DNA of 59,593 nt from positions 1-59,593 of the forward strand of contig JAADGC010000132.1 in NCBI GenBank assembly GCA_013152585.1, in the 5' to 3' direction. Below, piece by piece: positions 9,886-48,686 of this stretch. The stretch comes from Chloroflexota bacterium. Lineage in GTDB: Bacteria; Chloroflexota; Anaerolineae; J102. How positions within the stretch are numbered: the stretch's first letter is position 1; every line of letters begins with the position of its first letter. The notes beneath the pieces are model-generated. The model made no database searches. It saw only the letters and a list, made by a program, of their open reading frames with translations, and was not told the DNA's origin. Made by a program: the position numbers and the translations under genes.

Positions 9886-11592
9886 GTGCAAGTCTTGCGA
9901 GTTAATACCGAAACCGGTTTGATCCACTACGAAGCTGTACCCGAACATTGGCAACGACTGGGCGGACGGGCGCTGGTGGCCCGTTTCTTGTTGGATGAAG
10001 TCCCCCCCACCTGCGAGCCACTCGGCCCCAACAACAAACTGATCTGGGCGCCGGGTCTGTTAGTGGGCCATATGCTTTCCAGCCTGGACCGCATTTCGGT
10101 GGGCGGCAAGAGCCCGCTAACCGGCGGCGTCAAAGAGGCCAACGCCGGCGGTACCACCGGCCTAAAAATGATCTGGCTGGGCCTGCATTCCCTGATTGTC
10201 GAAGGCGGCCCGGCCGCGGACGGACGCTGGCAAATTCTCCGCGTTGGCCTGGATGGAGCCAGCCTCGAAGACGCCGGTGATCTGGCTGGCCTGGGCTTGA
10301 AAGAGACCGCCATGCAACTGCTGAACCGCTACGGCCCCAAAATTGGCATTTCGGCCATCGGGCCGGCAGGAGAACGACTCTATCGCACCGCCGGCATTAC
10401 CCACATCGACAAAGACCGAAACCTAACCCGCATTTCGGCCAGAGGGGGATTGGGCGCAGTGATGGGGTGCAAGCGGCTCAAAGCCATCGTCTTCGACAAC
10501 CCCAAACCCCACCGCCCGCCGCTGGCCGACAAGACCCTCTTCAGAGATGCTTCCGCCCGCTATCTGCAAGGGTTACGTGAACATCCGCAAACATCCGAAA
10601 TCTACACCTTGTACGGCACGGCGGCGATGGTCAACTTTTGTAATTCACAGGGCGGTATGCCCACCCGTAACTTTTCCGCCGGCAGCTTTGAGGATGCCGA
10701 GGCCATCGGTGGCGAAGCTATCAAAGAATTGAACACCGAACGCGGCGGTGAAATTGCGCACGCCTGCATGCCGGGCTGCATCATTCGCTGTTCGAACCTG
10801 TATGCCGGGCCAGATGGCGAAACCCTGGTCACGCCTCTGGAATATGAAACCATTGGCTTGATGGGATCGAATCTGGGCCTGAACGATCCCGACGTCATTG
10901 CCAAGATGAACGACATCGCCAATGACATGGGCATGGACACCATTGATACCGGCGCCGCCCTGGGCGTGGCCGCCGAAGCCGGTTTGATGGCCTTTGGCGA
11001 TGGCAGCCGGGCCCTGGAATTGATGGAAGAAGTTCGGCAGGACACGCCACTGGGCCGGATTATCGGCAATGGGGCCGGTCTCGCCGGTAAGATTCTGGGG
11101 GTGATCCGGGTGCCGGTGGTCAAAAATCAGGCCTTATCTGCTTATGACCCCCGTGCTATCAAGGGCACCGGCGTTACCTTCGCTACCTCGCCTCAGGGTG
11201 CGGATCACACCTGCGGCCTGACCATCCGCGCCCAAGTTGACCACACTGATCCGGCCGGCCAGGCTAAGCTGTCGCAGGGGGTTCAATACAGCATGGCCGG
11301 TTACGATTCGTTGGGGGCTTGCATTTTTAGCGGGTCCGGCCTGGGCGCGGATGAGGCCATCGTCTCGGATTTGATCAACGGGCGTTACGGCTGGGGTGTT
11401 GGCCCAGATTACTTGCAACATTTGGGTCGGGAAACCATTCTGATGGAACGCGAGTTTAATCGTCGGGCCGGTTTTACCAACGCCGATGACCGGCTGCCCG
11501 AATGGATGACTGGCGAGGCTATCGCCCCCACCCATACCGTTTTTGACGTTCCCGACGCCGACTTGGACGCCATGTTTCGGCCAGAGTCTTGA
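9886..11592 (+). CDS. Aldehyde:ferredoxin oxidoreductase (AOR) family, tungsto/molybdopterin enzyme
   Basis: VQVLRVNTETGLIHYE matches the usual AOR N-terminus. GTG 9886 lies 10 nt after AGGAG (the ORF is also open from GTG 9817, overlapping the E2 stop). Cys cluster ACMPGCIIRC plus distal GACIFSG; pterin-region motifs GADHTCG and EREFNRRAGF. Confidence 0.8.
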   Translation: MQVLRVNTETGLIHYEAVPEHWQRLGGRALVARFLLDEVPPTCEPLGPNNKLIWAPGLLVGHMLSSLDRISVGGKSPLTGGVKEANAGGTTGLKMIWLGLHSLIVEGGPAADGRWQILRVGLDGASLEDAGDLAGLGLKETAMQLLNRYGPKIGISAIGPAGERLYRTAGITHIDKDRNLTRISARGGLGAVMGCKRLKAIVFDNPKPHRPPLADKTLFRDASARYLQGLREHPQTSEIYTLYGTAAMVNFCNSQGGMPTRNFSAGSFEDAEAIGGEAIKELNTERGGEIAHACMPGCIIRCSNLYAGPDGETLVTPLEYETIGLMGSNLGLNDPDVIAKMNDIANDMGMDTIDTGAALGVAAEAGLMAFGDGSRALELMEEVRQDTPLGRIIGNGAGLAGKILGVIRVPVVKNQALSAYDPRAIKGTGVTFATSPQGADHTCGLTIRAQVDHTDPAGQAKLSQGVQYSMAGYDSLGACIFSGSGLGADEAIVSDLINGRYGWGVGPDYLQHLGRETILMEREFNRRAGFTNADDRLPEWMTGEAIAPTHTVFDVPDADLDAMFRPES

Positions 11593-11903
11593 TCATAACC
11601 GGGCCACCCCCGCAAAAGAGTGCGCCTGCCCGCGATTGGCCCATGGTCTGTCCTTCAACTTACTCCTTCATCCATCATTGGTGATGGTCGTCAAAATGCC
11701 AGCCGGGCGCGTCAAGCAATAAGTCGCGTTTAGGCCAGCCATTTTGCACCCGGCGCAGGGTTACGTCCCAGGGGCGTACCCCACTCAGGCTGTCGGTGGC
11801 TTCAACATTGCAGGCACCCACGGCGGCGCCCAGCCATCCAATCCGGCAGAATGGGCCAATCGGCAGATATAGGCACCTGCGTTCAAGGTGGAAAAGGTAT
11901 GAT

Positions 11904-12599
11904 TCATCGGTTTGCTCCCGTGTAGTAGCGCGGATAATCATTGACCAGCAGGTGCAGCGGCGGCTCATCCTCCTGAATTTCGGGGAAGCGGCCTATGGGT
12001 TTGTAAAAACAGTTGTCAGTATTGTCGTCATTCACAGTTGAAACCTCGCCCACTAACACCCGGCTTTCAGCCCCCCAGAATTTGTGATAAAGACCAGATG
12101 GCAAGGTGATGCTTTCTCCAGGGCTCAAGACTACGGTATCGCCAGCCTTCACCATGCGCTTTACCCCGTCCATGCTTACAGTCACATCCGTATCGGCCAG
12201 GCCTTCATCTTCGGTAGAGTTATACAACTGAATGACCAGCTTACCCCCACCTCGATTGATGATGTCTTCGACTTTATTCCAGTGAAAGTGCATCGGTACG
12301 AATTGGTCGACACCAACGATCATAATCTTCTCGGCGTAGAGTTTGCCTATCCCTGTCCTAAGGTTTTCTGGAGTGCCGTTGCGAATGGTGAACAAGAATA
12401 AGCCAAAGTTCCAGTAATCATCTTGGCCAAAATCGGTGATGTCCCAACCCAACTGGTTTCCGACAATCTCATACACCTCTCGGCCTTTGGTTTTCCAATC
12501 TTCTGGAGTCCAGTAAGCAAAAGGGGGCAGATAAAATCCCTGCTTCCTGATGAAAGCATTTGCGTCGTGCATGATTGTGTTAATCTCTGATCGCTTCAT
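11904..12599 (-). CDS. D-lyxose/D-mannose ketol-isomerase family cupin
   Basis: 231 aa. MKRSEINTIMHDANAFIRKQGFYLPPFAYWTPEDW, PMHFHWNKVEDIINRGGG, LSPGESITLPSGLYHKFW and GEVSTVNDDNTDN closely follow the enterobacterial D-lyxose isomerase pattern as I remember it. GGAGGAAC RBS. Confidence 0.8.
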   Translation of the reverse strand: MKRSEINTIMHDANAFIRKQGFYLPPFAYWTPEDWKTKGREVYEIVGNQLGWDITDFGQDDYWNFGLFLFTIRNGTPENLRTGIGKLYAEKIMIVGVDQFVPMHFHWNKVEDIINRGGGKLVIQLYNSTEDEGLADTDVTVSMDGVKRMVKAGDTVVLSPGESITLPSGLYHKFWGAESRVLVGEVSTVNDDNTDNCFYKPIGRFPEIQEDEPPLHLLVNDYPRYYTGANR

Positions 12600-13655: not shown

Positions 13656-14552
13656 TTACACCTCGCTGCGATCCCACAAACGTAATTGGAGGAGGGTGAC
13701 GATGGCCACCAGGATCAACAGCACCACGCCGATGGCAGAAGCTTTGCCGTATTTGCTGGCAATGAAGGCGGTCTGGTAAATAAGGAAGACGAGTGACGTA
13801 CTGGAGCTAGACGGCCCGCCTTCGGTCAGCATATAGATCGTCTCCCAGACCTGAAAGACGCCGATGGTTTGGGTGGCAAGGACAAACAGAATCACGGGTC
13901 TCAGCAACGGCAAGGTGACATACCAGGTGCGCTGCCAGTTGTTGGCCCCGTCGACCACGGAGGCATCGAGGAGATCCTGGTTAAGGTTGGCCAGGGCGGC
14001 CAGAAACAAGATGATGGGTTGTCCGAGCGTGAAGGTCAGTACAACCATAGAAACTGCCCAAAAGCTATACCTGGTGCTGGCCAGCCAAAGAACCGGCTCG
14101 ATGCCCACCAGTCCCAGTAGGTAGTTCAGCAGGCCAAAGGTGGGGTTAAATATCCATAGCCAGACCACCGACAGGATCACACCGCCGGCCACCGCCGGCA
14201 GATAGAACGCTCCCCGGTAAAAGGATTGGGCCTTTATGCCTCTTGGGTGTATGAGTAGCGAGATCACCAGCGACAATCCGACGGTGGCCGGCACCACAAC
14301 CAGGACGTATTTGATGGTATTGAACAGGGCCTTCTGGAACTTAACGTTGGTAAATAGTCGCTCGTACTGTAGCAGTCCCACGAACTGGCGTTGGTCTATG
14401 GCGAAGGAGGCTTTGTAGAAAGAAAGACCGATAGCAACCGCGAGGGGCAAGAACATGAAGGCTATGAAGGCCAGATAACCCGGGGCGATGAACAGGTATC
14501 CTACCCGGTTACGCCAGATTTCTCTTCCGAGCCCTGTGAGTTTGGCTGTCAT
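13656..14552 (-). CDS. CUT1 sugar ABC permease (MalF/UgpA-like)
   Basis: EAA loop DASVVDGANNWQRTWYVTLPLLRP. ATG 14552 (MTAKLTGLGREIW...) is preceded by AAGGAG. Confidence 0.85.
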   Translation of the reverse strand: MTAKLTGLGREIWRNRVGYLFIAPGYLAFIAFMFLPLAVAIGLSFYKASFAIDQRQFVGLLQYERLFTNVKFQKALFNTIKYVLVVVPATVGLSLVISLLIHPRGIKAQSFYRGAFYLPAVAGGVILSVVWLWIFNPTFGLLNYLLGLVGIEPVLWLASTRYSFWAVSMVVLTFTLGQPIILFLAALANLNQDLLDASVVDGANNWQRTWYVTLPLLRPVILFVLATQTIGVFQVWETIYMLTEGGPSSSSTSLVFLIYQTAFIASKYGKASAIGVVLLILVAIVTLLQLRLWDRSEV

Positions 14553-14639: not shown

Positions 14640-16049
14640 CTAGTCACATTCTGCGATAATTCCGTTAGCCTGTCCCACGAAATCATCCAGTATCTGTTGG
14701 ATGTCCGCATCCGGCTCCCAAAAGGCCTGTCGGGCCTCTGCCCAGGCCAGACGCACTTCGTTATAGTTGCAAGGAACGCCGGAGGAGTAGTAGTAATTCT
14801 TGGCGCCGTACTTCTGAACCACCGGCACCACCCAGGCCCAGTCGGGATCATCCGCCCAGGGATTCAGAGCATCATTGCGCACAGAGACCTCATTCCAACC
14901 AGCCGCGATTTGCACTCCTATCTCAGGCTGCTGAAGGTAATTGATGAAGTCCAGGATAACCGCCAGCTTCTTGGGGTTATCCTGCTTGAAAACGCTCCAG
15001 GCATGCGGATCCCAGGTGCCCATCGGCGTTGGTGGCGCGCCCGGCTTGTGCGGATAGTTCACCAGCAGGTACTCCATCGGCCCTTTGATGGAGCCATCTT
15101 CCAGACCGCGCGTGGTTACGCCGTTATACCAGAAGCCACCTCCGGTCATGGCGATCTCCTGGCGCTTCCAGTAACCATCCTGGTCGTCATCCACAAAGCC
15201 AGATGGCCCCGGCACTGTCAATCCTTCCTCCTGGAGGCTGTGCAGGAAAGTCATGGCCTCCACGCACTCCGGGCTATTGGCCACGTACTCTTGCTTCTCC
15301 TTGTCGTACAGATCGCAGCCCGGGAAGCCGCCAAACCAGTTGTTGAACGAGGTGTCAAAAGACGGGGTCTTAGCGAAGAACATGGTGCAGTAGCGGTTGG
15401 GCGGATCGTTGATGGCGCGGCAGGCTTTCAGGAACTCATCCGTCGTCCAGTTGCGATCGGGCTCCTGAGGCAGCAGATCCCCTAGCCCGGCCTCTTCGAA
15501 CATGGTTTTGTTGATGACGTAGGCAACGTAACCGGTGCCAATCGGGAGGGCCCAGATGCCGTCTGGCCCAGTGGTCACACTCAGTATACCAGGATCGTAT
15601 GCCGCTTTGTCCTTCTCGGTTATTGCTCCATCCAGTAGCTCCAGGAGACCGGCCTGGGCATACTTCTGGATGCGAAAGGTGCCATCATAGTAGATGTCGG
15701 GCGGCGTGCCGGCGGCCACGGCCGCGTCGACGAAGGTTGTGGTGCCGCCTGCCTCCACACCACGCAGGAAGAAGTTGATATTGACGCCGGGATGTTGCTT
15801 CTCGTATTCGTTGATCACCCGACTGTAGAAGTCCGACCACAGCTCCCCGGTGTCGGCCTTGGCCGAGCCCTCCGAGCCGAAAACCCACATGGTAATATCG
15901 ATGCGTTCGGGGGCCACCACTACAGTGACCTCCTTCTCGACCTCCTTGGTGACCACTACTTCCTTCTCAACAACCTGCGGTTGAGCGCACGCTGCCAACA
16001 GGAAAGCGGTGACCGCCATAAACAGAATTAGACGTATCTTTGTAAACAT
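14640..16049 (-). CDS. Extracellular sugar-binding lipoprotein (CUT1 SBP)
   Basis: Signal peptide with lipobox AFLLAAC followed by a repetitive EKEV linker; SBP_bac_1-like body. AGGAG RBS. Confidence 0.85.
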   Translation of the reverse strand: MFTKIRLILFMAVTAFLLAACAQPQVVEKEVVVTKEVEKEVTVVVAPERIDITMWVFGSEGSAKADTGELWSDFYSRVINEYEKQHPGVNINFFLRGVEAGGTTTFVDAAVAAGTPPDIYYDGTFRIQKYAQAGLLELLDGAITEKDKAAYDPGILSVTTGPDGIWALPIGTGYVAYVINKTMFEEAGLGDLLPQEPDRNWTTDEFLKACRAINDPPNRYCTMFFAKTPSFDTSFNNWFGGFPGCDLYDKEKQEYVANSPECVEAMTFLHSLQEEGLTVPGPSGFVDDDQDGYWKRQEIAMTGGGFWYNGVTTRGLEDGSIKGPMEYLLVNYPHKPGAPPTPMGTWDPHAWSVFKQDNPKKLAVILDFINYLQQPEIGVQIAAGWNEVSVRNDALNPWADDPDWAWVVPVVQKYGAKNYYYSSGVPCNYNEVRLAWAEARQAFWEPDADIQQILDDFVGQANGIIAECD

Positions 16050-16288
16050 TTTGTTCTCCTGACGAACTTATCATCTCAATAGAAGCGATTGATTGATGAC
16101 TTGCGTTTTCTACTAACAATTCATAGGCACACTCCTTTTCATCCATAGACAATCCGCCAGCAAGGCCCGCCATCCGTCAAACCGTTTCACATCTGCCGAC
16201 CCTCCCACGTTGCACACCCCCCGGGGATGCTGGTCCAACCCTCCGCCTGGTTTCGACACGTGCTGCCCGCGCAGTGGATCTCGAACTG

Positions 16289-16999
16289 TTACGCATCAGG
16301 CAGGCTCGTGGCACGGCGGATGCGTTCCTGTAGATGTCTGAAGTGGTGCATCATGTGTTGCCGCGCCAGGTCTTCATCGCGGGCTTTTACGGCATCCAGA
16401 ATGGCCACGTGGTTTTCGAGCTCTTCTTCCAGCCGGTTCACATCTTGAATAATCGGATTATCAAGATTCTCATAAGCGATCCAGAACACTTCGAAAAGAT
16501 TCATGAAGGTCTGATTGTTCAGGGTACCATACAGAATGCGGTGAAACTCTTCGTCCAGGTCTCTGTGAGGCTCTCCGGCTTGAACTCTTTCCTTCCAGAC
16601 ATCCATCAATGCTTCAAGCCGGTCCAGGTCGTCCGTGCTGATTTGTTTAACTACATATTCGATGGCCGCCCGCTCCAACAAGACCCGAATCTGGGCCAAC
16701 TCTGCCAACGTGTTCGTATCAAAACGTATACCATAATTGAGGGTTTCAAGAATGGGGTCAAAGGTATAGGGGCGTACGTAAAGTCCATCGCCACGCCGGA
16801 CTTCGATGATGCCCAGCGATTGTAGGGCCTTGATCGCTTCCCTGACAGAGCCGCGCCCAACTCCCAACTCTTCAGCCAGTTGCGTTTCTGATGGGAGGGG
16901 GTCGCCTGCACTCAACCCTTGATCCAAAATATACTGTTTGACGTAATCGCGAATGGCTTGGTTCAGAGCCGGTCTTTGAAGTAGTTTTGTCATAGGCAA
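16289..16999 (-). CDS. GntR-family (FadR/FCD subfamily) transcriptional regulator
   Basis: Winged HTH LPSETQLAEELGVGRGSVREAIKALQSLGIIEVRRGDGLYV, then an all-helical FCD-type C-domain. Confidence 0.9.
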   Translation of the reverse strand: MPMTKLLQRPALNQAIRDYVKQYILDQGLSAGDPLPSETQLAEELGVGRGSVREAIKALQSLGIIEVRRGDGLYVRPYTFDPILETLNYGIRFDTNTLAELAQIRVLLERAAIEYVVKQISTDDLDRLEALMDVWKERVQAGEPHRDLDEEFHRILYGTLNNQTFMNLFEVFWIAYENLDNPIIQDVNRLEEELENHVAILDAVKARDEDLARQHMMHHFRHLQERIRRATSLPDA

Positions 17000-17187: not shown

Positions 17188-18246
17188 ATGATGAAAGCAG
17201 TTGTCTATTACGCCCCCGGTGATATCCGAGTTGAGGATCGGCCAGAACCTGAACCGGCAGAAGACAATCTAATCGTGGAGGTTCGCTGTTGTGCCATCTG
17301 TGGCACTGATCTCAAGCTGGCGACCATCGGTAATCCGCGTTGTCATCCCCCGCGCATCATCGGCCACGAGTTGGTGGGCTATATTGTGCATGTCGGTTCG
17401 CAGGTCCAAGGTTTTGCCACAGGTGAACGGATAACATTGGCCACCACCATGGCTTGCGGTGATTGTCCCTATTGCGATCTGGGCCTGGGCAACCTGTGTC
17501 CCAATGCCAAACCCATCAGTTATGATTTCGATGGCGGATTTGCAGAGCGATTGGCGATTCCCCCGCTGGCGATCGTTAACGGCAACGTGATTAAAGTGCC
17601 CGACTCCGTCTCAGATGAGGCGGCAGCATTGAGCGAACCTCTGAGTTGTGTACTTAATGCCCTGGAGCTCGCTAACGTGAAGGCCTGCGGCAGTGTTCTC
17701 ATTATTGGCGGTGGGCCATTGGGGGCCTTACACGCTGAAGCAGCAAAGGCCCTGGGGGTGAAAAAAGTGATGATCGTGCAACGCTCGGAACCAAGGCTGT
17801 CTTTGCTGCGTAAACTTGGCGGTGTCAGGGTGATCAATGGCGCTCAAGAGGATGTGTTGTCTGTGGTTAGGGAGCAGACGGGAGGACTGGGGGCTGACTT
17901 GGTTTCCGTCTGTGCGCCGACACGTGAGGCTCAAGAGAAATCAATTCATTTTGCCCGCAAAGGTGGTACGGTTAGCCTGTTCGCCAGTCTGCCGAAAGAT
18001 GCGCCGGACATCACGCTAAACAGTCGCGTTGTGCATTACGGTGAGCTACGCATTGTCGGGGCGTCGGACTCGCGGCCGGAGCACGTGGCGAAAGCCGTGC
18101 GGCTGATGGCTGAGGGAAAGATGGACACAACCCCCATTATTACCCATCGCATATCACTTGAAGATATCCACGAAGGTTTAGATCTAATGAAAAACAAACA
18201 GTCATTGAAAGTCTTGGTCTATCCTCATAAAAGCAGAAAATCATGA
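17188..18246 (+). CDS. Zn-dependent medium-chain dehydrogenase (sorbitol/threonine dehydrogenase-like)
   Basis: MMKAVVYYAPGDIRVE start (ATG 17188). GHELVGYIVHVG, structural-Zn cluster CGDCPYCDLGLGNLC, NAD fold LIIGGGPLG. Confidence 0.9.
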   Translation: MMKAVVYYAPGDIRVEDRPEPEPAEDNLIVEVRCCAICGTDLKLATIGNPRCHPPRIIGHELVGYIVHVGSQVQGFATGERITLATTMACGDCPYCDLGLGNLCPNAKPISYDFDGGFAERLAIPPLAIVNGNVIKVPDSVSDEAAALSEPLSCVLNALELANVKACGSVLIIGGGPLGALHAEAAKALGVKKVMIVQRSEPRLSLLRKLGGVRVINGAQEDVLSVVREQTGGLGADLVSVCAPTREAQEKSIHFARKGGTVSLFASLPKDAPDITLNSRVVHYGELRIVGASDSRPEHVAKAVRLMAEGKMDTTPIITHRISLEDIHEGLDLMKNKQSLKVLVYPHKSRKS

Positions 18247-18698
18247 TACTTGCCACCAGACATACCGGCATCGTGGTGCAGGACATGGAGAAGTGCCTTC
18301 ATTTCTGGCAGGACATCATGGGGCTGGAGATAGCGATAGACTTCTGGGAAAGGGGCGAGTTTATCGACACCGTTCAACAATTGAGCGGCGTAAATCTACA
18401 CATGATAAAACTGACCGCGCCTGACGGTTCGGTGATCGAGCTCCTCAAAGATGAAGCACACCCAACGCCCCCTCCGGAAGGGAACAGAATGTGCGATAGA
18501 GGCATTCGTCACATTGCTTTTACGGTGGCCGACGTGGAGAAATCGTGGCGGATTCTGCGTGATAATGGCTGTGAGGTGTTGAGCAAGCCTGTATACGCAC
18601 CAGATGGAAAAGCAAAGCTTTTTTTTGCCCGTGACCCTGAGGGAAACCTACTCGAGATCGTTCAAGTTTTGAGCCTCGCAGGAGGGAACGATGCGTAA
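18243..18698 (+). CDS. VOC/glyoxalase-family protein
   Basis: 151 aa with two beta-alpha-beta-beta-beta modules (HTGIVVQDMEK..., IRHIAFTVADVEK..., DPEGNLLEIVQ). ATGA overlap with the upstream gene. Confidence 0.75.
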   Translation: MILATRHTGIVVQDMEKCLHFWQDIMGLEIAIDFWERGEFIDTVQQLSGVNLHMIKLTAPDGSVIELLKDEAHPTPPPEGNRMCDRGIRHIAFTVADVEKSWRILRDNGCEVLSKPVYAPDGKAKLFFARDPEGNLLEIVQVLSLAGGNDA

Positions 18699-20106
18699 CG
18701 AAATCAAGGTTGAAACGCGGTATCGTCGAATTGTCTCGGATATCCCACACCCTGACTCTCGGACAGTCATTGATGAACTGAGCCGGCTGGAACCGCGCTC
18801 GATGACTGGTATTTCGCCGGTCGTCTGGAACAGAGCAGAGGGGTTCCAGGTTTGGGACGGGCATGGCAATCGATGGCTTGATTTTACTTCAGCGATTGTG
18901 CTGGCCAACGTTGGCCACGCCAATCCCAAGATTAGCCAGGCCATTCGCGAACAGCTTGACCATTATCTATTCCACAGTTACTGCAATCCAACCGAGATCC
19001 GGCTGAGAGCTGTCAAGGCAATGAGAGAGATTCTGCCGCCTTATCTTGATAAAGTCTTCTTGTTAAGTACCGGATCGGAGGCCGTTGAAGCAGCTCTCAA
19101 GCTCACTCGTATGTATGGGCAAACAATCGCGTCCGGAAAAATTCACATCCTCTCCTACTACAATTCCTTCCACGGCCGGACGCTGGGGGCTCAGATGGCT
19201 GGAGGCTTTCTGGATCAGCAGGAGTGGATGGGCCAAAAGCCAGGTGGCTTCCATCATATTCCATTTCCAGAATGTGCACGCTGTCCTTGGGGCCGGCAAA
19301 AGTATGAAAATTGTGGAGTAGAATGCCTGGAACGATCGCTGGAACAACTCCGCGAACAGGATGTCCCGGACGATCTTTTTGCTGGCGTTATCACGGAGAC
19401 GTTTCAGGGACCAACCGTTGCCTTTATGCCCTTGGACTATGTACAGGCACTGCGTGAGTGGGCGGACAAGCACAAGACGTTACTTATCTTCGATGAGATA
19501 CAGGCAGCTTTTGGTCGGACAGCTAAATGGTTTGGGTTTGAGCATTATGGGGTCGAAGCTGATCTAATCTGTCTGGGCAAGGGTATGACTGCATCTTTGC
19601 CTATGTCTGCTGTGGCCGGGCGAGCTGCGATCCTCGATTTGCCTGATCCTGGTGAGATGAGCAGCACCCACACAGGAAATCCGTTGTGTTGTGCTGCAAC
19701 GATAGCCAATATCAACACCATTCGAGAAGAGGGGCTGATGGCGAACGCGGTTGCACTTGATCCTGTGATGCGAAAATCATTGGAGCATCTCTGCGAGAGT
19801 TTCCCGGGCTATGTCGGGGCCATCAACGGAAAAGGCCTCATCTGGGGTGTGTATCTGTTGAACCCGGCCACGGGGCAACCGAATTTGAGTCTAGCCAAGC
19901 GTGTCATCACGCGCTGCATAGAGCTTGGTCTCTTGATGCTGCCGACCGGAGGGCGCGGAACGTTGAAAATTGCGCCGCCCCTCTGCATCACAGAGGAAGC
20001 GCTTCTGGAGGGGGTTAGGGTGATCGAACAAGCTCTGGCCGAGTGTGTCGGGGGGAACTGGAATTCAGCCAGCACCCACGGGACAGGAATGGTGGAAAGC
20101 CTATGA
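18691..20106 (+). CDS. Class III (omega-type) PLP aminotransferase
   Basis: STGSEAVEAALKL, LIFDEIQAAFGRT, PLP-lysine context CLGKGMTAS. GGAGGG RBS. Confidence 0.9.
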   Translation: MRNEIKVETRYRRIVSDIPHPDSRTVIDELSRLEPRSMTGISPVVWNRAEGFQVWDGHGNRWLDFTSAIVLANVGHANPKISQAIREQLDHYLFHSYCNPTEIRLRAVKAMREILPPYLDKVFLLSTGSEAVEAALKLTRMYGQTIASGKIHILSYYNSFHGRTLGAQMAGGFLDQQEWMGQKPGGFHHIPFPECARCPWGRQKYENCGVECLERSLEQLREQDVPDDLFAGVITETFQGPTVAFMPLDYVQALREWADKHKTLLIFDEIQAAFGRTAKWFGFEHYGVEADLICLGKGMTASLPMSAVAGRAAILDLPDPGEMSSTHTGNPLCCAATIANINTIREEGLMANAVALDPVMRKSLEHLCESFPGYVGAINGKGLIWGVYLLNPATGQPNLSLAKRVITRCIELGLLMLPTGGRGTLKIAPPLCITEEALLEGVRVIEQALAECVGGNWNSASTHGTGMVESL

Positions 20107-21302
20107 AGACAAGTATGACTTCGCGAGAACGGCTTCTGGCTACCTGCGCCCATGAGCCCACCGACCATGTGCCGCTGCACCTGGATGTTCACCCTCTCTA
20201 TTATCAGTACGACCCACAAGCGACTACCTGGGAGGACCAATTTGAACGCACCGACGCTCTGCTGGCGCTCGGCGTTGATGCGATGATCGAGCTATGGTTG
20301 CCCGACCCGGCATTTCATCCCGATGTTAAGGTACGTAGCTGGCGCCAAGAGAGGAACGGCACGGTGCTGCTGGGCAAAGAATATGAAACACCGGCTGGCT
20401 CACTGCGACAGCTAATCAAGGAAACCCCCGGCCTATACCAATGGAACAAAATCAACGGCAAAACCCGCGGGCGACTGACCGACAACTTGATAGACGGGAT
20501 TGGTTTGCTGGAGGACGTGAACCCTTCACGAAGCGTTGAGTTTCTGATTAAGGGACCCGAAGATTTAGCGAAAATGCGCTATCTCTTCCAGCCTACGTCC
20601 GGTGACCAACTGGCTGAGTGGCGCACAGACGCCTTCTACGCCAAGAAAGAAGCTCAGAAACGTCAAGTGGCCTTTATCGCCCGCCGTACTTATTGTGGGT
20701 CGGCTATGGTGTGGCTCACAGATGCCATCGAGACCATGCTCTCTTATGAAGTGGACCCTGAGTACGTGGGCGAGTTCCTACAGATTATCCACGAATGGCA
20801 GTTGGCGACGTTGGAGATGGTCCTCGACATCGGCGACATCGACATAGTGACCCGTTTTGGCTACTACGACATCCCTGACTTCTGGAGTCGCAAATATTTT
20901 GATTACTATTTGCGGCCCAGGATGGACGAAGAGGCGGATATGGTCCATCAGGCGGGGACATTGCTCAGGCAGCAGCAAAGCAAAGGGCTAACTCAGTTAG
21001 TCGATATCTACAAAAAAATGAAGGTTGACATCTTGTGTGACATTGACCCGGTGCAGGGCCAGGAAGATATGGCCTTGTTGAAGAGGGAATTGGGGGCGAC
21101 CAAGACACTTATGGGCGGAATTAATGGTGATTTGTTCCTGGCAAACGCTTCTCCTGCAGAAATTGACCGAACTGTACAGGACACACTTCGACTGATGGCT
21201 GCGGGCGGCGGATTCATTATGCACATTATCCCCGGCATTTACTCTGGTGTACCCTGGGCTAATGTCCTGAGTTTGGTGGAAGCCTGGAGGAAGTATGCAT
21301 AA
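20103..21302 (+). CDS. URO-D (uroporphyrinogen decarboxylase/MtaA) family protein, paralogue 1
   Basis: ATGA overlap with the aminotransferase stop. N-terminus MTSRERLLATCAHEPTDHVPLHLD resembles the other paralogues. The HxCG position reads QQQSKG, so no His/Cys. Confidence 0.7.
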   Translation: MKTSMTSRERLLATCAHEPTDHVPLHLDVHPLYYQYDPQATTWEDQFERTDALLALGVDAMIELWLPDPAFHPDVKVRSWRQERNGTVLLGKEYETPAGSLRQLIKETPGLYQWNKINGKTRGRLTDNLIDGIGLLEDVNPSRSVEFLIKGPEDLAKMRYLFQPTSGDQLAEWRTDAFYAKKEAQKRQVAFIARRTYCGSAMVWLTDAIETMLSYEVDPEYVGEFLQIIHEWQLATLEMVLDIGDIDIVTRFGYYDIPDFWSRKYFDYYLRPRMDEEADMVHQAGTLLRQQQSKGLTQLVDIYKKMKVDILCDIDPVQGQEDMALLKRELGATKTLMGGINGDLFLANASPAEIDRTVQDTLRLMAAGGGFIMHIIPGIYSGVPWANVLSLVEAWRKYA

Positions 21303-38687: not shown

Positions 38688-38716
38688 TTGACAATTGGCC
38701 GCCAAACTGCTATAGT
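38688..38716 (+). promoter_or_regulatory. Near-consensus sigma70-type promoter upstream of the his region
   Basis: TTGACA (38688-38693), 17 nt, TATAGT (38711-38716). Confidence 0.55.
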
Positions 38717-38732: not shown

Positions 38733-38777
38733 ATGACCGACTATTTGTTGCGCACATCCCTTCATCATTATAGCTGA
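38733..38777 (+). CDS. 14-codon leader-type ORF MTDYLLRTSLHHYS (candidate his leader peptide)
   Basis: AAGGTG lies 5 nt before the ATG. Two adjacent His codons (CAT CAT, 38763-38768) sit two codons before the stop. The ORF is sandwiched between the promoter and an intrinsic terminator. Confidence 0.35.
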   Translation: MTDYLLRTSLHHYS

Positions 38778-38824
38778 ACAGGTGAGGGCGGCCATTCCAG
38801 GGCGCTCTGGTCGTGCTCACCATC

Positions 38825-38851
38825 GAGACTAGCGATTCGCTAGTCTTTTTT
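38825..38851 (+). terminator. Rho-independent terminator / attenuator hairpin
   Basis: AGACTAGCG-ATT-CGCTAGTCT stem-loop followed by a T-run (38846-38851), 150 nt upstream of hisZ. Confidence 0.7.
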
Positions 38852-39002
38852 GTTATCTTGTAGCTGCCATTGCCCTCCAAAAAGGCCTCTCACAAAGCTT
38901 CTTTTTAGCTCTTTTTCTTGACGTCTCTGTGGCTTGGCGTGAGCTAAACACCTTCCTTTTTTCTCCGCGTTCTCAGCGGTCTCACCGTTGAAAGCTTTTC
39001 CT

Positions 39003-40286
39003 ATGACTCACTCTTCACTCCAAATCCCGCCTCCATCCATCACACCACCGGCCATTCCCCGCGGGGTCGCCGACTTCTTTGGCGGTGCTGCTCAGGCCCG
39101 ACGCCAGGCCGAAAGCGCCTTGCGCCAACTGGCCCGCCTGTGGGCCTACACCGAGATCATCCCCCCCACCTTCGAATACGCCGACACCCTCGCCGGTGAA
39201 GCCGGTTCGCAACTGGCCGCAGAGCTCTATCGCTTTCTCGACCGGGATGGCCGCACGTTGGCCCTGCGCCCCGACCTCACCATCCCCACCGCCCGTATTG
39301 CCGGCTCCAAGCTTTACGATCAAGCCCTGCCCCAACGTTTTTTCTATACCGGCTCCGCCTTCCGTTACGAAGAACTACGGGGAGGGCGGCAGCGCGAATT
39401 CCTGCAGGCCGGCGTCGAGCTCATCGGCGCCGGTGGTGCCGACGCCGACGCCGAGGTGCTGGCCCTGGCCGTACAGGCCTTACAGGCGTTGGGATTACCA
39501 AAATTTCGCTTCAGCCTGGGGCATTTGGGCTACTTCCACGGTCTGTTGGCACACCTGGCACTGGCGCCTGCGGAAATTGCCCGCGTACAGGCTGCCCTGG
39601 ATCGCAAAAGTCATGATGAAGTGGCAGACCTGGCAGCAGAACTACGCCTGCCGCCGCCTGAACGCCAGACATTGCTGGGGTTGTTGGACTTGATCGGTAG
39701 CCTGGAATCAGACACACTGGCGAGGGCGCAGAAGTTGGCTCGGAATCAGAAAATGCAGGACGCCGTGCAGCGGCTGCAGGCCATTAGCCAGCGCCTGCAC
39801 CACTATGCCGTGCACCATGCCTTCATGGTCGACTTGGCCGATGTGCGCGGCATGGACTACTATACCGGCATCACTTTCAAAGCCTACACATCCCAAATGG
39901 GCTCGTCCATCGTCAATGGTGGCCGTTACGATAATCTCGTGGGGCATTTTGGTCCGCCGCGGCCCGCTGTGGGCTGCGCCTTCTATCTCGACCGTATTCT
40001 GCTGGCCCAACGCCGCCAACTGGGCCCGCCCCCCGATCCCCGACCCGATCTGTTCATTCATCCCTGCGCCTGCGCCCAGTACGTGGCGCTGGCTCAGCAA
40101 AGCCGAGCGGCCGGCCTGATCACCGCCCTCGCCCTGGGCCCCGAATCGCCATCCACCGCCGCTGCCAGCCTACGCTGCACCTGCGATGGTGGCGCCATCC
40201 TGGAACGGCCAGGCCAGCCCCCGCAGCGCTTTGCCGTGGGCGAATGGCCGCACATCGTGGCTGAACTAAAATCCCTCGGATCCTGA
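39003..40286 (+). CDS. hisZ: ATP phosphoribosyltransferase regulatory subunit (HisS paralogue)
   Basis: Class II aaRS-like core, but with LRPDLTIPTARI rather than the HisS RPEGT motif. FRYEELRGGRQREFLQAGVELIG, GGRYDNL. Lies in a his operon that has a short-form hisG. The ORF is also open from TTG 38988. Confidence 0.8.
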   Translation: MTHSSLQIPPPSITPPAIPRGVADFFGGAAQARRQAESALRQLARLWAYTEIIPPTFEYADTLAGEAGSQLAAELYRFLDRDGRTLALRPDLTIPTARIAGSKLYDQALPQRFFYTGSAFRYEELRGGRQREFLQAGVELIGAGGADADAEVLALAVQALQALGLPKFRFSLGHLGYFHGLLAHLALAPAEIARVQAALDRKSHDEVADLAAELRLPPPERQTLLGLLDLIGSLESDTLARAQKLARNQKMQDAVQRLQAISQRLHHYAVHHAFMVDLADVRGMDYYTGITFKAYTSQMGSSIVNGGRYDNLVGHFGPPRPAVGCAFYLDRILLAQRRQLGPPPDPRPDLFIHPCACAQYVALAQQSRAAGLITALALGPESPSTAAASLRCTCDGGAILERPGQPPQRFAVGEWPHIVAELKSLGS

Positions 40287-40353
40287 CCCGGCTTATTCAG
40301 AGTCCCCAAGGTCTCTCGCACAGGCTGCTAAGGACGCCAAGATCACAAAAGTA

Positions 40354-40382
40354 TTGACATACAGCACCTATCTTGTTATAAT
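40354..40382 (+). promoter_or_regulatory. Perfect consensus sigma70 promoter for the ATPase/RloB pair
   Basis: TTGACA (40354-40359), 17 nt, TATAAT (40377-40382), in an AT-rich 155-nt spacer after hisZ. Confidence 0.6.
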
Positions 40383-40441
40383 GAGTATATTCGAGATTTT
40401 ATCACAAATTTTCAAGTTTCACTATAATAATTAGGTCTATT

Positions 40442-41743
40442 ATGATTATTGAATTCAGTGTGGGAAACTTCCGTTCCTTCCGTGATATAGTTACGCTCAG
40501 CATGGTGGCGGCAAAACTCAGGGCCAAGAACAAGGCGCTGGACGAGAACAACGTCTTCGCTGCGCCTGGGGCGCCCCCCCTACTGACCAGCGCCGCCATT
40601 TACGGCGCCAACGCCAGCGGCAAGAGCAATCTGATCGCTGCCATTGGCTTTATGCGGCGCTTTGTCATCGACTCCACCAAAGAAACGAGAGCCACCGGCG
40701 CCATTGATGTCGAAAGCTTCCGCTTGAGCACAACAACCATCGGTCAACCTTCCCATTTCGAGATCGTTTTCGTGCTGGACGATAAACGTTATCGCTATGG
40801 CTTCGAAGTCACCTCAGAGCGGGTTGTTGAGGAATGGCTTTTTTATGTGCCAAGCACACGCGAGGCCCGCCTGTTCGAACGTTTCGAAGACGAAATCAAG
40901 TTAGGCGAGTCATTCAAAGAGGGTAGAGACCTCATCGAGAAAACCCGCCCCAATGCCCTCTTCCTGTCAGTGGTCGCTCAATTCAATGGCCCTATCGCTA
41001 AAAATGTTATCGACTGGTTTAGAGGTTTGGGAATAATATCCGGCCTGTCGGACCAGGGCATTATGGGTTATACCATGCGTCGTTGGTCGGAAGGCAAGGC
41101 GACCGACAAAATGAGGCAATTCATACAACAGTTAGATCTTGGGATTCAAGATTTGAGCGTTGAGAAAGGTTTAGCCAGCTTAGAGCCTATTCCAGAAGAT
41201 ATGCCGGATGAGTTTCGCAAGATTATCGAACCATTTCGAGAATTTTTTAGTCGAGAGGATGTCGAAAGACTAACTGTCATCACGGAACACCCTGTTTTCG
41301 ACCAAGAGGGAATACGTGTGAGAAGTGAGAAATTCGATCTCGGGCAGCATGAGTCAGAAGGGACACAGAAACTGTTTGCGTTTTCGGGTCCGTTATTTGA
41401 CACACTTGAAAAAGGAAAAGTATTGTTTGTGGATGAGCTTGACGCCCGTCTGCACCCGTTGCTCACCCGCGAGATCGTTCGCTTGTTCAACTCTCGCCAA
41501 ACCAACCCTCACCACGCCCAACTGATCTTTACCACGCAAGACACCAGTTTACTCGATAACCGTTTTCTGCGCCGGGATCAAATCTGGTTCTCGGAAAAGG
41601 ACAGACAGGGCGCCACGCACCTGTACTCTTTGGCCGAGTACAAGGTGCGCAACGACGCTTCATTTGAGCGAGATTATATCCAGGGACGCTACGGGGCCAT
41701 TCCCTATTTGGGCGACTTGCGGCAGATTGTGGAGGGAGCTTGA
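40442..41743 (+). CDS. AAA_21/ABC-like ATPase (AbiLi / RloA / AriA-like defence ATPase)
   Basis: MIIEFSVGNFRSFRD start. Walker A GANASGKSNL, signature-like SEGTQKLFAF, Walker B VLFVDELDARLHP, FTTQDTSLLD, C-terminal RRDQIWFSEKD...GRYGAIPYLG. Visibly lower GC than its neighbours. Confidence 0.85.
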   Translation: MIIEFSVGNFRSFRDIVTLSMVAAKLRAKNKALDENNVFAAPGAPPLLTSAAIYGANASGKSNLIAAIGFMRRFVIDSTKETRATGAIDVESFRLSTTTIGQPSHFEIVFVLDDKRYRYGFEVTSERVVEEWLFYVPSTREARLFERFEDEIKLGESFKEGRDLIEKTRPNALFLSVVAQFNGPIAKNVIDWFRGLGIISGLSDQGIMGYTMRRWSEGKATDKMRQFIQQLDLGIQDLSVEKGLASLEPIPEDMPDEFRKIIEPFREFFSREDVERLTVITEHPVFDQEGIRVRSEKFDLGQHESEGTQKLFAFSGPLFDTLEKGKVLFVDELDARLHPLLTREIVRLFNSRQTNPHHAQLIFTTQDTSLLDNRFLRRDQIWFSEKDRQGATHLYSLAEYKVRNDASFERDYIQGRYGAIPYLGDLRQIVEGA

Positions 41744-42354
41744 TGACAAGGCAGCGCTCATCCCGACGTAAAGGTCGAGGTTACCGCACTCGACGCGTCA
41801 ATTTTCGGGAACCGGCGCAGCGTTTCCTGATCGTCTGCGAGGGTGAACGCACCGAACCGAACTACTTTAACAGCTTTCGAGTACCTAAACTTGTCATTCA
41901 TGCCAAAGGCTATGGCCTGAGCCCGAATGACTTAGTGAAAAAAGCTGAAGACGAACGCAGGTCGGATGACTACGATCAGGTGTGGTGCGTTTTCGACAGG
42001 GATCACTGCGGAGCAGAGGTTTTCAATGCAGCAATTCAACAAGCCCAAAATCTTGGTATCCAGGTCGCTTACTCCAACGAGGCCTTTGAGCTTTGGTACT
42101 TGCTCCACTTCCACTACTACAACACCGCCGTTTCTCGTCATGAATATGCTGCCAAGCTTGGTGATCTACTCGGTCATCCCTACCAGAAGAACTGCACGAC
42201 CATCTTTGAAGAGTTGCATGCCAGACAGAAGGATGCCATCCGCAACGCAGAACGGCTGCTATCCCAGTATTTACCGCCCAACCCCGCAGCCGATAACCCC
42301 TCCACTACCGTGCACAAACTGGTCGAGCAACTGAACAAATATGCGCGTCACTAG
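41743..42354 (+). CDS. RloB-family (Toprim/OLD-like) protein (AbiLii-like)
   Basis: TGATG overlap with the ATPase; GGAGGGAG RBS. RFLIVCEGERTEPNYF, VWCVFDRD and AYSNEAFELWYLLHF are RloB hallmarks. Confidence 0.85.
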   Translation: MTRQRSSRRKGRGYRTRRVNFREPAQRFLIVCEGERTEPNYFNSFRVPKLVIHAKGYGLSPNDLVKKAEDERRSDDYDQVWCVFDRDHCGAEVFNAAIQQAQNLGIQVAYSNEAFELWYLLHFHYYNTAVSRHEYAAKLGDLLGHPYQKNCTTIFEELHARQKDAIRNAERLLSQYLPPNPAADNPSTTVHKLVEQLNKYARH

Positions 42355-42452
42355 CCACCGGCTCTACCAAACATCGTAAACATGACCATCGATCAACTCA
42401 TCTTCACCCGTGATTCTTGCTCAATGGGCAAGAAAGCAACTGCGAAGGTACT

Positions 42453-43082
42453 ATGCTGACTATTGCCCTCCCCAAAGGCCGCCTGGCCGATGATGCGCTT
42501 GTCTGGTTGCAGCGCGCCGGCTGGTCCCTGCCGGCCACCGACAGCGGCCGCAAGCTGGTTGTTGCCAGCCAGGATGGCCGCCTGAACTACGTGCTGGCCA
42601 AGCCCATGGATGTGCCCGTCTTCGTGGAACAAGGCGCGGCCGACATCGGCATTGCCGGCCGCGATGTGGTGCGCGAGCGCGCCGCCGACGTGTTCGAACC
42701 CATGCGCCTGCCCTTTGGCCACTGTCGCCTCTCTGTGGCTGGCCCTGCTGCCCGCAAAGACCTGCCCCTGCGCCTCGACGTTTATCCCCGTGTGGCCACC
42801 AAATATCCCCGCCTCACCGGGCAATACTTCCGCGACCGTGGCATCTCCGCCGAGCTCATTGTGCTCAGCGGTTCGGTCGAGCTGGGCCCACTGGTCAATC
42901 TGGCCGATCTCATCGTCGATCTCGTGCAAACCGGCGACACCCTCCAGGCGAACGAGCTGGTGGAACTGCGCACCATTCTCGAATCGCAGGCCATACTCAT
43001 CGTCAACCGCGCCAGCTACCGCCTGCATACGGCTGCCATCGACGCCCTCCTCAGCTCCATGCGCCACACCATTGGCAAGTGA
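42453..43082 (+). CDS. hisG: ATP phosphoribosyltransferase, short (HisZ-dependent) form
   Basis: MLTIALPKGRL start at ATG 42453 after GAAGG. GAADIGIAGRDV, VATKYPRLT, DLIVDLVQTGDTL. About 209 aa with no C-terminal regulatory domain. Confidence 0.9.
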   Translation: MLTIALPKGRLADDALVWLQRAGWSLPATDSGRKLVVASQDGRLNYVLAKPMDVPVFVEQGAADIGIAGRDVVRERAADVFEPMRLPFGHCRLSVAGPAARKDLPLRLDVYPRVATKYPRLTGQYFRDRGISAELIVLSGSVELGPLVNLADLIVDLVQTGDTLQANELVELRTILESQAILIVNRASYRLHTAAIDALLSSMRHTIGK

Positions 43083-45631: not shown

Positions 45632-46672
45632 ATGGCTCACTATCTCATTACCGGAGGCTCTGGTTTCCTCGGCATCAATCTTGTTCGCACCTTGCTTGCC
45701 AGGGGCCAAAGCGTTACAACTCTCGATCTTACCCCCTTTGATTACGAGGATGTGCAGGACCAGGTCACGGCAATCACTGGCGATATCCGTGATACCGCCG
45801 CGGTTGCCACAGCCCTTGAGGGCATCGACATCGTCGTGCACACGGCGGCGGCCCTGCCCCTGTACAAGCCTGAAGACATCTATTCCACTGATATCGATGG
45901 TACGCGCAATGTGCTCGAGCAATCTCATCGCAAAGGCGTAGAGCGCTTCATCCACATCTCCTCGACCGCGGTATACGGCATCCCCGACCACCATCCCCTC
46001 GTCGAAACCGACAAACTGGAAGGGGTAGGTCCTTATGGCGAATCCAAAGTGAAGGCCGAAGCTATGTGCCAGGAATACCGGGACAAAGGCCTGTGTATCT
46101 CCATCATTCGTCCCAAATCCTTCATCGGTCCCGAACGTCTGGGCGTCTTCGCCTTGTTTTATGACTGGGCCAAAGATGGAAAGAACTTCCCCGTTTTGGG
46201 CCGGGGCGACAACCTGTATCAGTATCTTGACGTCGAAGATCTGTGCGATGCGATCTGGCTGTGTGCCACGTTACCCAGCGAAAAGACCAATGATACCTTC
46301 AATATCGGCGCCAAAGAATACGGCACCTCGCGTGAGGATTTTCAGGCCGTTTTGGACTACGCCGGCTTTGGCAAGCGCATCATTTCCATCCCCGAAGGCC
46401 CTGCCATCTTCATCCTGCGTTTTCTGGAAAAACTGGGAATTTCGCCGCTTTACAAATGGGTTTACGAGACGGCCGGAAAGGAATCTTTTGTCTCCATCGA
46501 AAAAGCAGAACAGGTGCTGGGATTCCGGCCAAAGTACTCGAACAAAGAGGCGCTCATTCGCAACTACCAGTGGTATCTGGAAAACCTCGATAGTTTCAGC
46601 CATGCTTCTGGCGTCACCCATCGCGTCCCCTGGCAACAGGGCGCTCTGAAATGGGCCAAGATGTTCTTCTGA
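45632..46672 (+). CDS. NAD-dependent epimerase/dehydratase (extended SDR)
   Basis: [18 protein letters not shown]-x3-K in [10 protein letters not shown]. Not a histidine-pathway enzyme. Confidence 0.85.
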
Positions 46673-48116: not shown

Positions 48117-48686
48117 ATGCTCCATTCCCTAAAACTTTCCCCTTCTCGTAGCCTTTTGCAGACGGGATTGATTGTGGGCTTCGCCTTGTTCACAGGCTTA
48201 GCCGCACAGATACGCCTGCCCCTGGCCTTCACGCCGGTGCCCGTGACCTTGCAGGTGCTGGCTGTGATTTTGACAGGCTTGCTCCTGAGTCCCAAAGACA
48301 GCTTTCTCAGTCAATTGAGTTATCTGGCTTTGGTTGCGGGAGGAGCACCGCTGGCAGCCGGAGGTGTGGGCGGCCCGGCGCTGTTCATCGGCCCCACTGC
48401 CGGTTACCTGTTGAGTTTTCCTTTAGCAGCAGCGTTCATTGCCCTGCTGGCAGGTGCCGATGCCAGACCCCTTCGCCGATTTTTTGCCGGCGTTGCCGGG
48501 ATTCCGATCATTTATCTGGCCGGGATTGGCTGGTTGGCCCTGAGCCTGCACTTAGACGCAACCCAAGCCTGGCGACTGGGTGGTGCTCCTTTTCTTGTAG
48601 TTGATCTGGTAAAAGCTTTGCTCGCCGCCACCGTCGCTGAAAGTGGCCGTCGCCTCTTGCGAATGTGGTCGGCACCTTCTCTCTAA
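48117..48686 (+). CDS. bioY: BioY-family biotin transporter S-component
   Basis: [36 protein letters not shown]; six hydrophobic helices. Confidence 0.75.

Follow-up and report, generated by a model that had tools for sequence, protein, structure and literature searches.

AbiL of Lactococcus lactis, an abortive-infection system of two genes, acts after phage transcription by a mechanism that is still unexplained (Deng 1999, cited by way of PMC13064643). It has been grouped with PARIS, OLD, Gabija and MADS among the systems that combine an ATP-binding cassette (ABC) ATPase with a TOPRIM protein (PMC11464382; PMC12409363; bioRxiv 10.64898/2026.07.10.737580). Two effectors of this group, AriB and P2 OLD, are tRNases restrained by their ATPase (PMC11464382, PMC12409363, PMC12445682; bioRxiv 10.64898/2026.07.10.737580). 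A gene pair of AbiL type was analysed in a contig of a Chloroflexota bacterium (GenBank assembly GCA_013152585.1, contig JAADGC010000132.1, positions 1 to 59,593), the whole 59,593-nt stretch being referred to as the window. The pair occupies a 2,166-bp insert between hisZ and hisG (40287-42452), which holds two co-oriented open reading frames (ORFs) and nothing else coding. The insert is probably a horizontally acquired anti-phage cassette of the AbiL family, abortive-infection or toxin-antitoxin-like in action, in which a promoter and a leader element precede two translationally coupled genes kept under purifying selection.

The first gene, ORF A (40442..41743, + strand), encodes an AbiLi-type ABC ATPase of 433 amino acids (aa) that matched Pfam AAA_21 at 2.2e-46 (cut-off 27 bits) and the PADLOC AbiLi model at 1.5e-107. 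ORF B (41743..42354, + strand) encodes an RloB/AbiLii-type protein of 203 aa from its ATG, which matched Pfam RloB at 2.6e-47 and PADLOC AbiLii at 4.5e-34; no other family was matched. The TGA stop of ORF A and the ATG start of ORF B share one base in a TGATG junction. An earlier sequence-only reading of the window had described two coupled genes of these sizes in this segment and had named them an AAA_21 plus RloB pair corresponding to AbiL. Both ORFs and the overlap were recovered, and the Pfam and PADLOC searches agreed on the assignment, with RloB the only match of the second protein. On these profiles the pair is a member of the AbiL family, which is common and already catalogued. The ATPase query returned 8,000 scored matches and the RloB query more than 5,000, and many cyanobacterial and Chloroflexi homologues already bear the label 'RloB family protein' or 'abortive phage resistance protein'. 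For the exact ATPase, the sole record is an 'ATP-binding protein' of a Chloroflexi metagenome-assembled genome (MAG). Relatives were found on 190 PLSDB plasmids, many of them mobilizable enterobacterial plasmids of 4-6 kb, and in 221 matching stretches of viral or prophage contigs. An RloB-profile ORF lay directly 3' of the ATPase gene in 123 of 161 family loci, about one third of the exceptions being without downstream DNA, and the overlap of ATPase stop and RloB start recurred in L053, L055, L057, L223, L224 and L225.

The ATPase motifs comprise a Walker A motif at G55-S62, a signature-like E304-S305-x-G307-T308, a Walker B and D-loop at D331-E332-x-D334 and H338. In a 61-sequence family alignment, invariant or nearly invariant columns were G55, N57, A58, G60, K61, S62, D331, E332, D334 and H338, followed in the C-terminal part by Y412, G415, G418, A419 and P421. 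The motifs quoted for both proteins in the sequence-only reading fall on such columns of the ATPase and RloB alignments. The AlphaFold2 model of the ATPase had a predicted local distance difference test (pLDDT) score of 83 and a predicted template modelling score of 0.82. Searched with Foldseek, it matched Rad50 (6.9e-10), Thermus OLD (6p74, 9e-9) and PtuA of Septu (8sux, 8eea and 8ee4, E ∼1e-8), together with RecF and SMC heads; AriA structures were absent from its top 50 matches. Alignment of the ATPase to an OLD profile with hhalign gave E 9e-5 at a probability of 59%, the local match spanning signature, Walker B and H-loop. The structural matches confirm the protein as a Rad50/OLD-like ABC ATPase. 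The H-loop histidine of OLD was aligned with Q366 of the ATPase. The tail of the protein (residues 401-433, window 41642-41740; ...ERDYIQGRYGAIPYLG...) has pLDDT <50 and is predicted to be disordered despite its invariant residues; it may serve in docking of the partner or in oligomerisation.

The RloB family alignment contains invariant or nearly invariant E33, E38, D85, D87, E116 and H122. The AlphaFold2 model (pLDDT 85) is a beta-alpha-beta sandwich in the order beta1-alpha-beta2-alpha-beta3-alpha-beta4, in which E33 and E38 follow beta1 and D85-x-D87 follows beta3, a Toprim-type pattern of acidic residues. The spacing of EG-x-TE, ∼52 aa and DxD resembles that of OLD Toprim motifs I and II. 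By analogy, RloB is presumed to be a metal-dependent nuclease effector. Its N-terminus (residues 1-25, window 41743-41820; MTRQRSSRRKGRGYRTRRVNFRE) is arginine-rich, with the first 20-25 residues disordered and R17, R22 and R27 nearly invariant, and could contact nucleic acid or the ATPase. Searches of PDB sequences detected no solved structure for either the ATPase family or the RloB family.

On the left, hisZ (39003..40286, + strand) encodes the regulatory subunit of ATP phosphoribosyltransferase; its ORF opens with TTG at 38988, the likely start is ATG 39003, and the product matched TIGR00443 at 1.3e-92, above the NCBIfam cut-off, and Pfam tRNA-synt_His at 2e-81. On the right, the short-form hisG (42453..43082, + strand) matched TIGR00070 at 1.1e-58 and Pfam HisG at 2.7e-51. 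For comparison of the junction, one genome per species was scanned with hisZ, which gave 52 loci, all from Chloroflexota MAGs; Caldilineales-like genomes come nearest, their HisZ being 62-72% identical. In every locus whose contig includes hisG, this gene comes after hisZ, and insert-free relatives have the two genes overlapping (ATGA) or ∼10 nt apart at most. No relative of either module protein is encoded in the 52 loci. Since the insert-free junction has a length of about zero, the 2,166-bp segment splits a formerly translationally coupled pair. HisZ and short HisG form one hetero-oligomeric enzyme, and for this reason the split matters.

One sister assembly, at ∼95-96% nucleotide identity (loci L053 and L054), has the identical order hisZ-ATPase-RloB-hisG, with 93-97% nucleotide identity over the shared genes; the insertion is thus shared with this sister and not private to the window genome. 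The ATPase and RloB proteins are 91% and 90% identical to those of the sister, against 94-98.5% for the flanking core proteins (96% for HisZ). Ratios of nonsynonymous to synonymous substitution rates (dN/dS) were 0.23 for the ATPase, 0.40 for RloB and 0.07-0.25 for the neighbours, and dS was of the same order in the module (0.13-0.22) and in its neighbours (0.05-0.18). These values fit a single insertion, by which the cassette would have entered the zero-length junction in the common ancestor of the window genome and its sister, followed by vertical co-inheritance. They also fit purifying but relaxed or diversifying selection on both genes, the proteins changing faster than their neighbours.

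More distant homologues, at 60-75% identity, sit in unrelated contexts. The module has a GC content of 0.51-0.52 and a GC content at third codon positions (GC3) of 0.58, and the his genes have a GC content of 0.61-0.67 and a GC3 of 0.70-0.80. The segment had been described as AT-richer than its surroundings, which holds against the his genes but not against the whole window, where GC3 averages 0.648 with a standard deviation of 0.076 and the module is no outlier. Across the left 38 kb GC3 ranges over 0.53-0.72, mostly 0.55-0.70, and because the whole window is heterogeneous, composition by itself fails to single out the module. Taken with the 52 related loci that lack the pair and the homologues in unrelated contexts, the difference from the his genes supports horizontal acquisition of the cassette into the hisZ-hisG junction, as had been proposed. 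The earlier observation that island hallmarks are missing also stood: no tRNA gene was found in the window, and no meaningful direct or inverted repeats, target-site duplications or terminal inverted repeats were found at the module borders. With no integrase, tRNA or flanking repeats, and only two genes, the segment falls outside the classical definition of a genomic island or integrative element.

The cassette promoter (40354..40382, + strand) matches the sigma-70 consensus at 12 of 12 positions, as the perfect TTGACA-N17-TATAAT of the sequence-only reading implied. Its -35 TTGACA (40354-40359) and -10 TATAAT (40377-40382) are separated by 17 nt, and an extended -10 TG is present at 40374-40375. 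Upstream regions of nine near-clade cassettes, with 60-91% protein identity and each in a different neighbourhood except that of sister locus L053, were aligned. The invariant columns were the -35 TTGAC, the -10 TAnnAT and, ∼8-9 nt after the -10, the half-sites of a 15-bp element, with AAT next to it; the 17-nt spacer was unconserved. Nucleotide homology with cassettes elsewhere begins at 40387-40395 and ends just short of the RloB stop. The left spacer, from the hisZ stop to the promoter (40287..40353, + strand), is conserved in L053 only. A second promoter-like site at 40399-40428 (10/12) was rejected as fortuitous; its conservation is limited to the sister genome.

The window copy of the 15-bp element, CGAGATTTTATCACA (40392..40406, no strand assigned), is a degenerate copy of a family palindrome of the form TGnnn-N5-nnnCA and begins ∼9 nt beyond the -10, near position +3 of the transcript. 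A perfect palindrome, TGTGATTTTTTCACA, is carried by L056. The palindrome was surveyed in 120 non-redundant upstream regions of family members 37-91% identical, with dinucleotide shuffles as the null. Perfect copies were present in 32 of the 120 regions (1.4±1.2 in shuffles, maximum 7) and copies with at least four of five pairs in 67 (11.2±3.6 in shuffles). Density was 1.62/kb within the 170-nt upstream windows and 0.091/kb in the remaining 916 kb of the same loci, an 18-fold difference. The half-sites fall into the classes TGAGA/TCTCA, TGTGA/TCACA, TGACA/TGTCA and TGCAT/ATGCA, and the same class recurs in proteins less than 40% identical. As RNA the palindrome is weak (-0.9 kcal/mol for the window copy) and mismatches in imperfect copies are not enriched in G-U (10/56), and for these reasons a DNA operator was preferred over an RNA hairpin. 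An RNA-element reading of the leader and spacers was rejected: Rfam gave no match at gathering scores and one chance-level match at E<=1. Position and enrichment upstream of family members suggest that the palindrome is a protein-bound DNA operator at the transcription start, which would imply autorepression. In L224 (1409-4737), a near-clade cassette of 67% identity, a STAS-domain gene and a radical-SAM (lipoyl-synthase-like) gene enclose the pair co-directionally, leaving only 53 nt upstream and 6 nt downstream of it; the called start is immediately preceded by a perfect palindrome, CGTGAATTATTCACG.

The working proposed for the cassette draws on PARIS and P2 OLD by analogy. The Rad50/OLD-like AbiLi would oligomerise and keep AbiLii (RloB) inactive, until a phage-derived cue shifted the state of the ATPase and RloB was freed or activated. 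RloB would then act as a metal-dependent nuclease through E33, E38, D85, D87 and E116. Its target would most likely be RNA or tRNA, a preference that follows from the restrained tRNases AriB and P2 OLD, so that translation would stop and the infection abort. Transcription would start at the cassette's own consensus promoter, and the palindrome at ∼+3 would most likely be the operator through which the cassette represses itself, in the manner of type II toxin-antitoxin operons.

Several results weigh against this account. The Toprim relationship of RloB could not be established statistically: Foldseek of the RloB model against the PDB returned nothing at E<=1e-3, with OLD, AriB and GajA outside the top 50; an hmmsearch of PDB sequences with the RloB profile returned nothing relevant, and phmmer likewise gave no support for Toprim. 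Alignment of RloB with hhalign to P2 Old alone or to a 42-sequence OLD profile reached a probability of 0.1-0.2%. When a 157-sequence RloB alignment was set against the Toprim part of OLD, motif I alone was aligned (EGKTE of OLD with CEGEKTE of RloB), weakly, at a probability of ∼6%. Of the OLD and Toprim kinship claimed in the sequence-only reading, the ATPase half was borne out by the match to Thermus OLD and the RloB half was not reproduced. As to substrate, the relative GajA is a DNA nickase that cuts DNA and not tRNA. As to control, the window palindrome pairs at only three of five arm positions, profile scans recognised a DNA-binding domain in neither the ATPase nor RloB, and no clean palindrome was found in three distant plasmid copies inspected, so that the element is frequent but not universal. 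In the single published test, AbiLi failed to neutralise AbiLii toxicity in trans (PMC3985639), and a simple antitoxin model may for that reason be wrong.

Of the other explanations, the one that survives best is that the cassette works mainly as a selfish (toxin-antitoxin) addiction module and has no anti-phage role of significance, being kept because its loss is lethal or because excision harms the operon. AAA + TOPRIM_OLD pairs score, and have been validated, as toxin-antitoxin pairs (PMC10440598), AbiLii of Fusobacterium (F. nucleatum) is toxic in E. coli (PMC3985639), and type II toxin-antitoxin operons typically have an operator-like palindrome at their promoter. The his-junction cargo of relatives is also largely of this kind. 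Between hisZ and hisG, L003 carries a BrnT/BrnA pair (11170-11790), L007 a fused, degenerate BrnT/BrnA remnant (11176-11538), L002 two small unassigned ORFs (11223-11712), and L004 and L016 simple repeats. Further cargo in L003 comprises BrnT between hisD and hisC (13888-14482) and DUF4160/DUF2442 with a nucleotidyltransferase gene (NTP_transf_2) between hisC and hisB (15987-16953), and a PhdYeFM/PIN pair is present in the sister. Against an addiction role stand the abortive-infection phenotype demonstrated for the founding AbiL, in L. lactis only (PMC13064643), the frequency of relatives on viral or prophage contigs and small mobilizable plasmids, as is seen for defence genes, and the faster amino-acid evolution of the pair than of its neighbours, which fits an arms race. 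A mainly addictive module was judged unlikely, and the addiction and anti-phage readings may both hold.

That the cassette is PARIS proper (AriA/AriB), with anti-restriction proteins such as Ocr as its trigger and substrates of the tRNA-Lys type as its cleavage targets, was judged very improbable. The second-best PADLOC model of ORF A is AriA (1.8e-42), the architecture of two genes for ATPase and nuclease is shared, and published trees place AbiL beside PARIS among the AAA15/21 systems (PMC11464382). The earlier label 'AbiL/PARIS-like' is narrowed to AbiL-like, and strict membership of PARIS is refuted, by the partner, which is RloB (PF13707) and not DUF4435: a permissive Pfam scan found DUF4435 or Toprim_OLD in 0 of 61 family members, even at E<=10. 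The AbiLi model moreover beats the AriA model by 65 orders of magnitude in PADLOC, and AbiLii and AriB have no sequence similarity and superpose poorly in structure, according to PMC13064643. An accessory RloA/RloB pair that belongs to a type I restriction-modification locus and works with Hsd proteins, as in Campylobacter, is scarcely credible here. RloB, from which the Pfam family takes its name, was originally found in type I restriction-modification loci of Campylobacter (PMC10440598, PMC13064643), and one of the plasmid homologues of the ATPase carries the annotation RloA, but in the window the pair is flanked by hisZ and hisG, the profiled window genes include none that is hsd-like, and near-clade copies are also without hsd neighbours. 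A housekeeping role in histidine biosynthesis or DNA repair, as a native part of the his operon, would suit a co-oriented, tightly packed and probably co-transcribed pair whose ATPase resembles Rad50, RecF and SMC heads, but it can be dismissed almost entirely, since no his operon among the 52 related loci contains the pair, which is spread over many phyla, plasmids, viral contigs and unrelated contexts and differs from the his genes in composition.

The cassette may also affect expression of its host operon. Upstream of hisZ lie an 11/12 promoter (38688-38716), a 14-codon ORF, MTDYLLRTSLHHYS (38734-38778), that ends ...SLHHYS, and a strong terminator-like hairpin with a T-run (38825-38857). 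Similar short ORFs were found in L002, L003, L005, L007, L013 and L015; they close with HH or HHH and one or two further residues (...FHHH, ...SSHHHD, ...STHHHT, ...SRHHD, ...LKHHHY and ...NYHHY), with T-runs between the short His-rich ORF and hisZ. The region matched no Rfam family. It looks like a histidine leader-peptide attenuator and is treated as a candidate for one.

The right spacer between RloB and hisG (42355..42452, + strand) contains a small hairpin (42414-42434) and the hisG Shine-Dalgarno sequence GAAGG (42444-42448), and its final ∼60 nt are kept in L053. Its RNA fold was no better than that of shuffles (z -0.9), and a + strand scan from the RloB stop to hisG predicted no intrinsic terminator. 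Since the cassette promoter lies downstream of the attenuator and no terminator was predicted after RloB, hisG and the downstream his genes may receive attenuator-independent transcripts. Cassette transcripts would probably run on into these genes and partly bypass the leader and terminator control upstream of hisZ. The sequence-only reading had supposed either read-through of the module or supply of hisG from its promoter, and both are plausible in the light of the terminator scan. A repressed cassette promoter would limit such transcription. Relative to the window, L053 has an extra 112 bp 3' of the RloB stop (11965-12076), which are missing at window 42402/42403. Three minus-strand ORFs within the module (65, 119 and 69 aa) were rejected as antisense artefacts of two long, well-supported genes.

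In the his clusters, which were the operons compared, the cargo pattern is suggestive of a lineage in which the junctions of the his cluster often hold foreign genes, toxin-antitoxin pairs included. A wider reading, which joins this pattern to the promoter and leader, is advanced tentatively and is on balance doubtful. AbiL cassettes would be autonomous and autoregulated units, with the 15-bp operator bound by an ATPase-RloB complex so that transcription reported the state of the complex. Tight self-repression would let such cassettes settle without an integrase inside essential operons, the leader-controlled his operon of Caldilineales would be a recurrent landing site for toxin-antitoxin and defence modules, and through the insertion hisG and the his genes downstream of it would have been rewired so as to escape histidine attenuation.

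Other genes were seen at his junctions. Between hisB and hisH, L053 has an additional 3.1 kb (17195-20146) that encodes the PhdYeFM antitoxin, the PIN toxin, an N6/N4 DNA methyltransferase and a 266-aa protein without Pfam match, and the window has ∼190 bp only; the methyltransferase and the 266-aa protein may be a restriction-modification pair. In the window, an NAD-dependent epimerase gene lies between hisC and hisB (45632-46672, GC3 0.65) and is shared only with L053, and a BioY transporter gene lies between hisH and hisA (48117-48686, GC3 0.58), at the same position in L001, L003 and L005. A Fic/Doc-type HPFxDGNGRxxR motif was noted by eye in genes of 251-268 aa immediately upstream of hisA in L002 (16670-17425, hisH-hisA) and L003 (18921-19727, BioY-hisA), and GNAT-like and MBL-like genes were noted by eye as other junction cargo. 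A 27-kb block (window 11656-38617) ends just before the hisZ leader and is missing in L053, where its flanks are ∼30 bp apart. It contains genes for lyxose isomerase, a sugar ABC transporter, a GntR regulator, several URO-D-like proteins, a corrinoid-binding protein, aminotransferases and dehydrogenases. The block was rejected as a defence island or mobile element, all 20 profiled genes being metabolic or transport genes with no mobility gene among them.

The module itself adds little, being one more AbiL pair that standard defence finders would flag; it is ordinary for its defence family, and its position is unusual but explicable. What is new is the dated insertion, the family-wide architecture of promoter and palindrome and the mosaic, apparently attenuator-led his cluster. 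The locus is a clean, datable insertion of a defence cassette without recombinase hallmarks, between two genes of one enzyme whose translation is normally coupled. It shows that cargo of this kind can be borne by core operons, and the sister genome lets rates and selection be measured. The conserved promoter and palindrome give a concrete hypothesis of regulation for AbiL, which is mechanistically uncharacterised. The position also bears on the definition of defence hot spots, which may here lie within operons and not only between them.

Compared with known systems, the cassette resembles type II toxin-antitoxin operons in that it is compact and bicistronic and has a promoter of its own and a palindrome at the transcription start, and toxin-antitoxin modules occupy equivalent junctions in relatives. 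It differs in its upstream gene, which encodes a 433-aa ATPase with no detectable helix-turn-helix or ribbon-helix-helix domain in place of a small DNA-binding antitoxin. With Septu PtuA/PtuB and retron-associated PtuAB it shares a two-gene arrangement of ATPase sensor and nuclease effector and an ATPase model similar to PtuA hexamers, but the effector PtuB is an HNH nuclease and is replaced here by RloB. The OLD family (P2 Old, Thermus OLD and GajA of Gabija) is approached through the match of the ATPase model to Thermus OLD and the OLD-Toprim-like motif spacing of RloB, but in this cassette ATPase and nuclease are separate proteins. PARIS is likewise split into a sensor ABC ATPase and a small nuclease effector, is often found on mobile elements and has an ATPase of the same AAA15/21 superfamily (PMC11464382). 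Its effector AriB is a DUF4435 protein (PF14491), for which PADLOC gave no match here; because the partner is RloB and DUF4435 is absent, the cassette was assigned to AbiL and not to PARIS. The closest likeness, judged through the PADLOC profiles only, is to AbiL of L. lactis, a system modelled in both PADLOC and DefenseFinder, which also consists of two co-oriented, overlapping genes for an AAA_21/AAA_15 ABC ATPase and then an RloB protein of ∼200 aa. The lactococcal system is carried on a plasmid, whereas the present cassette lies on a Chloroflexota (Caldilineales-like) chromosome, embedded in a biosynthetic operon.

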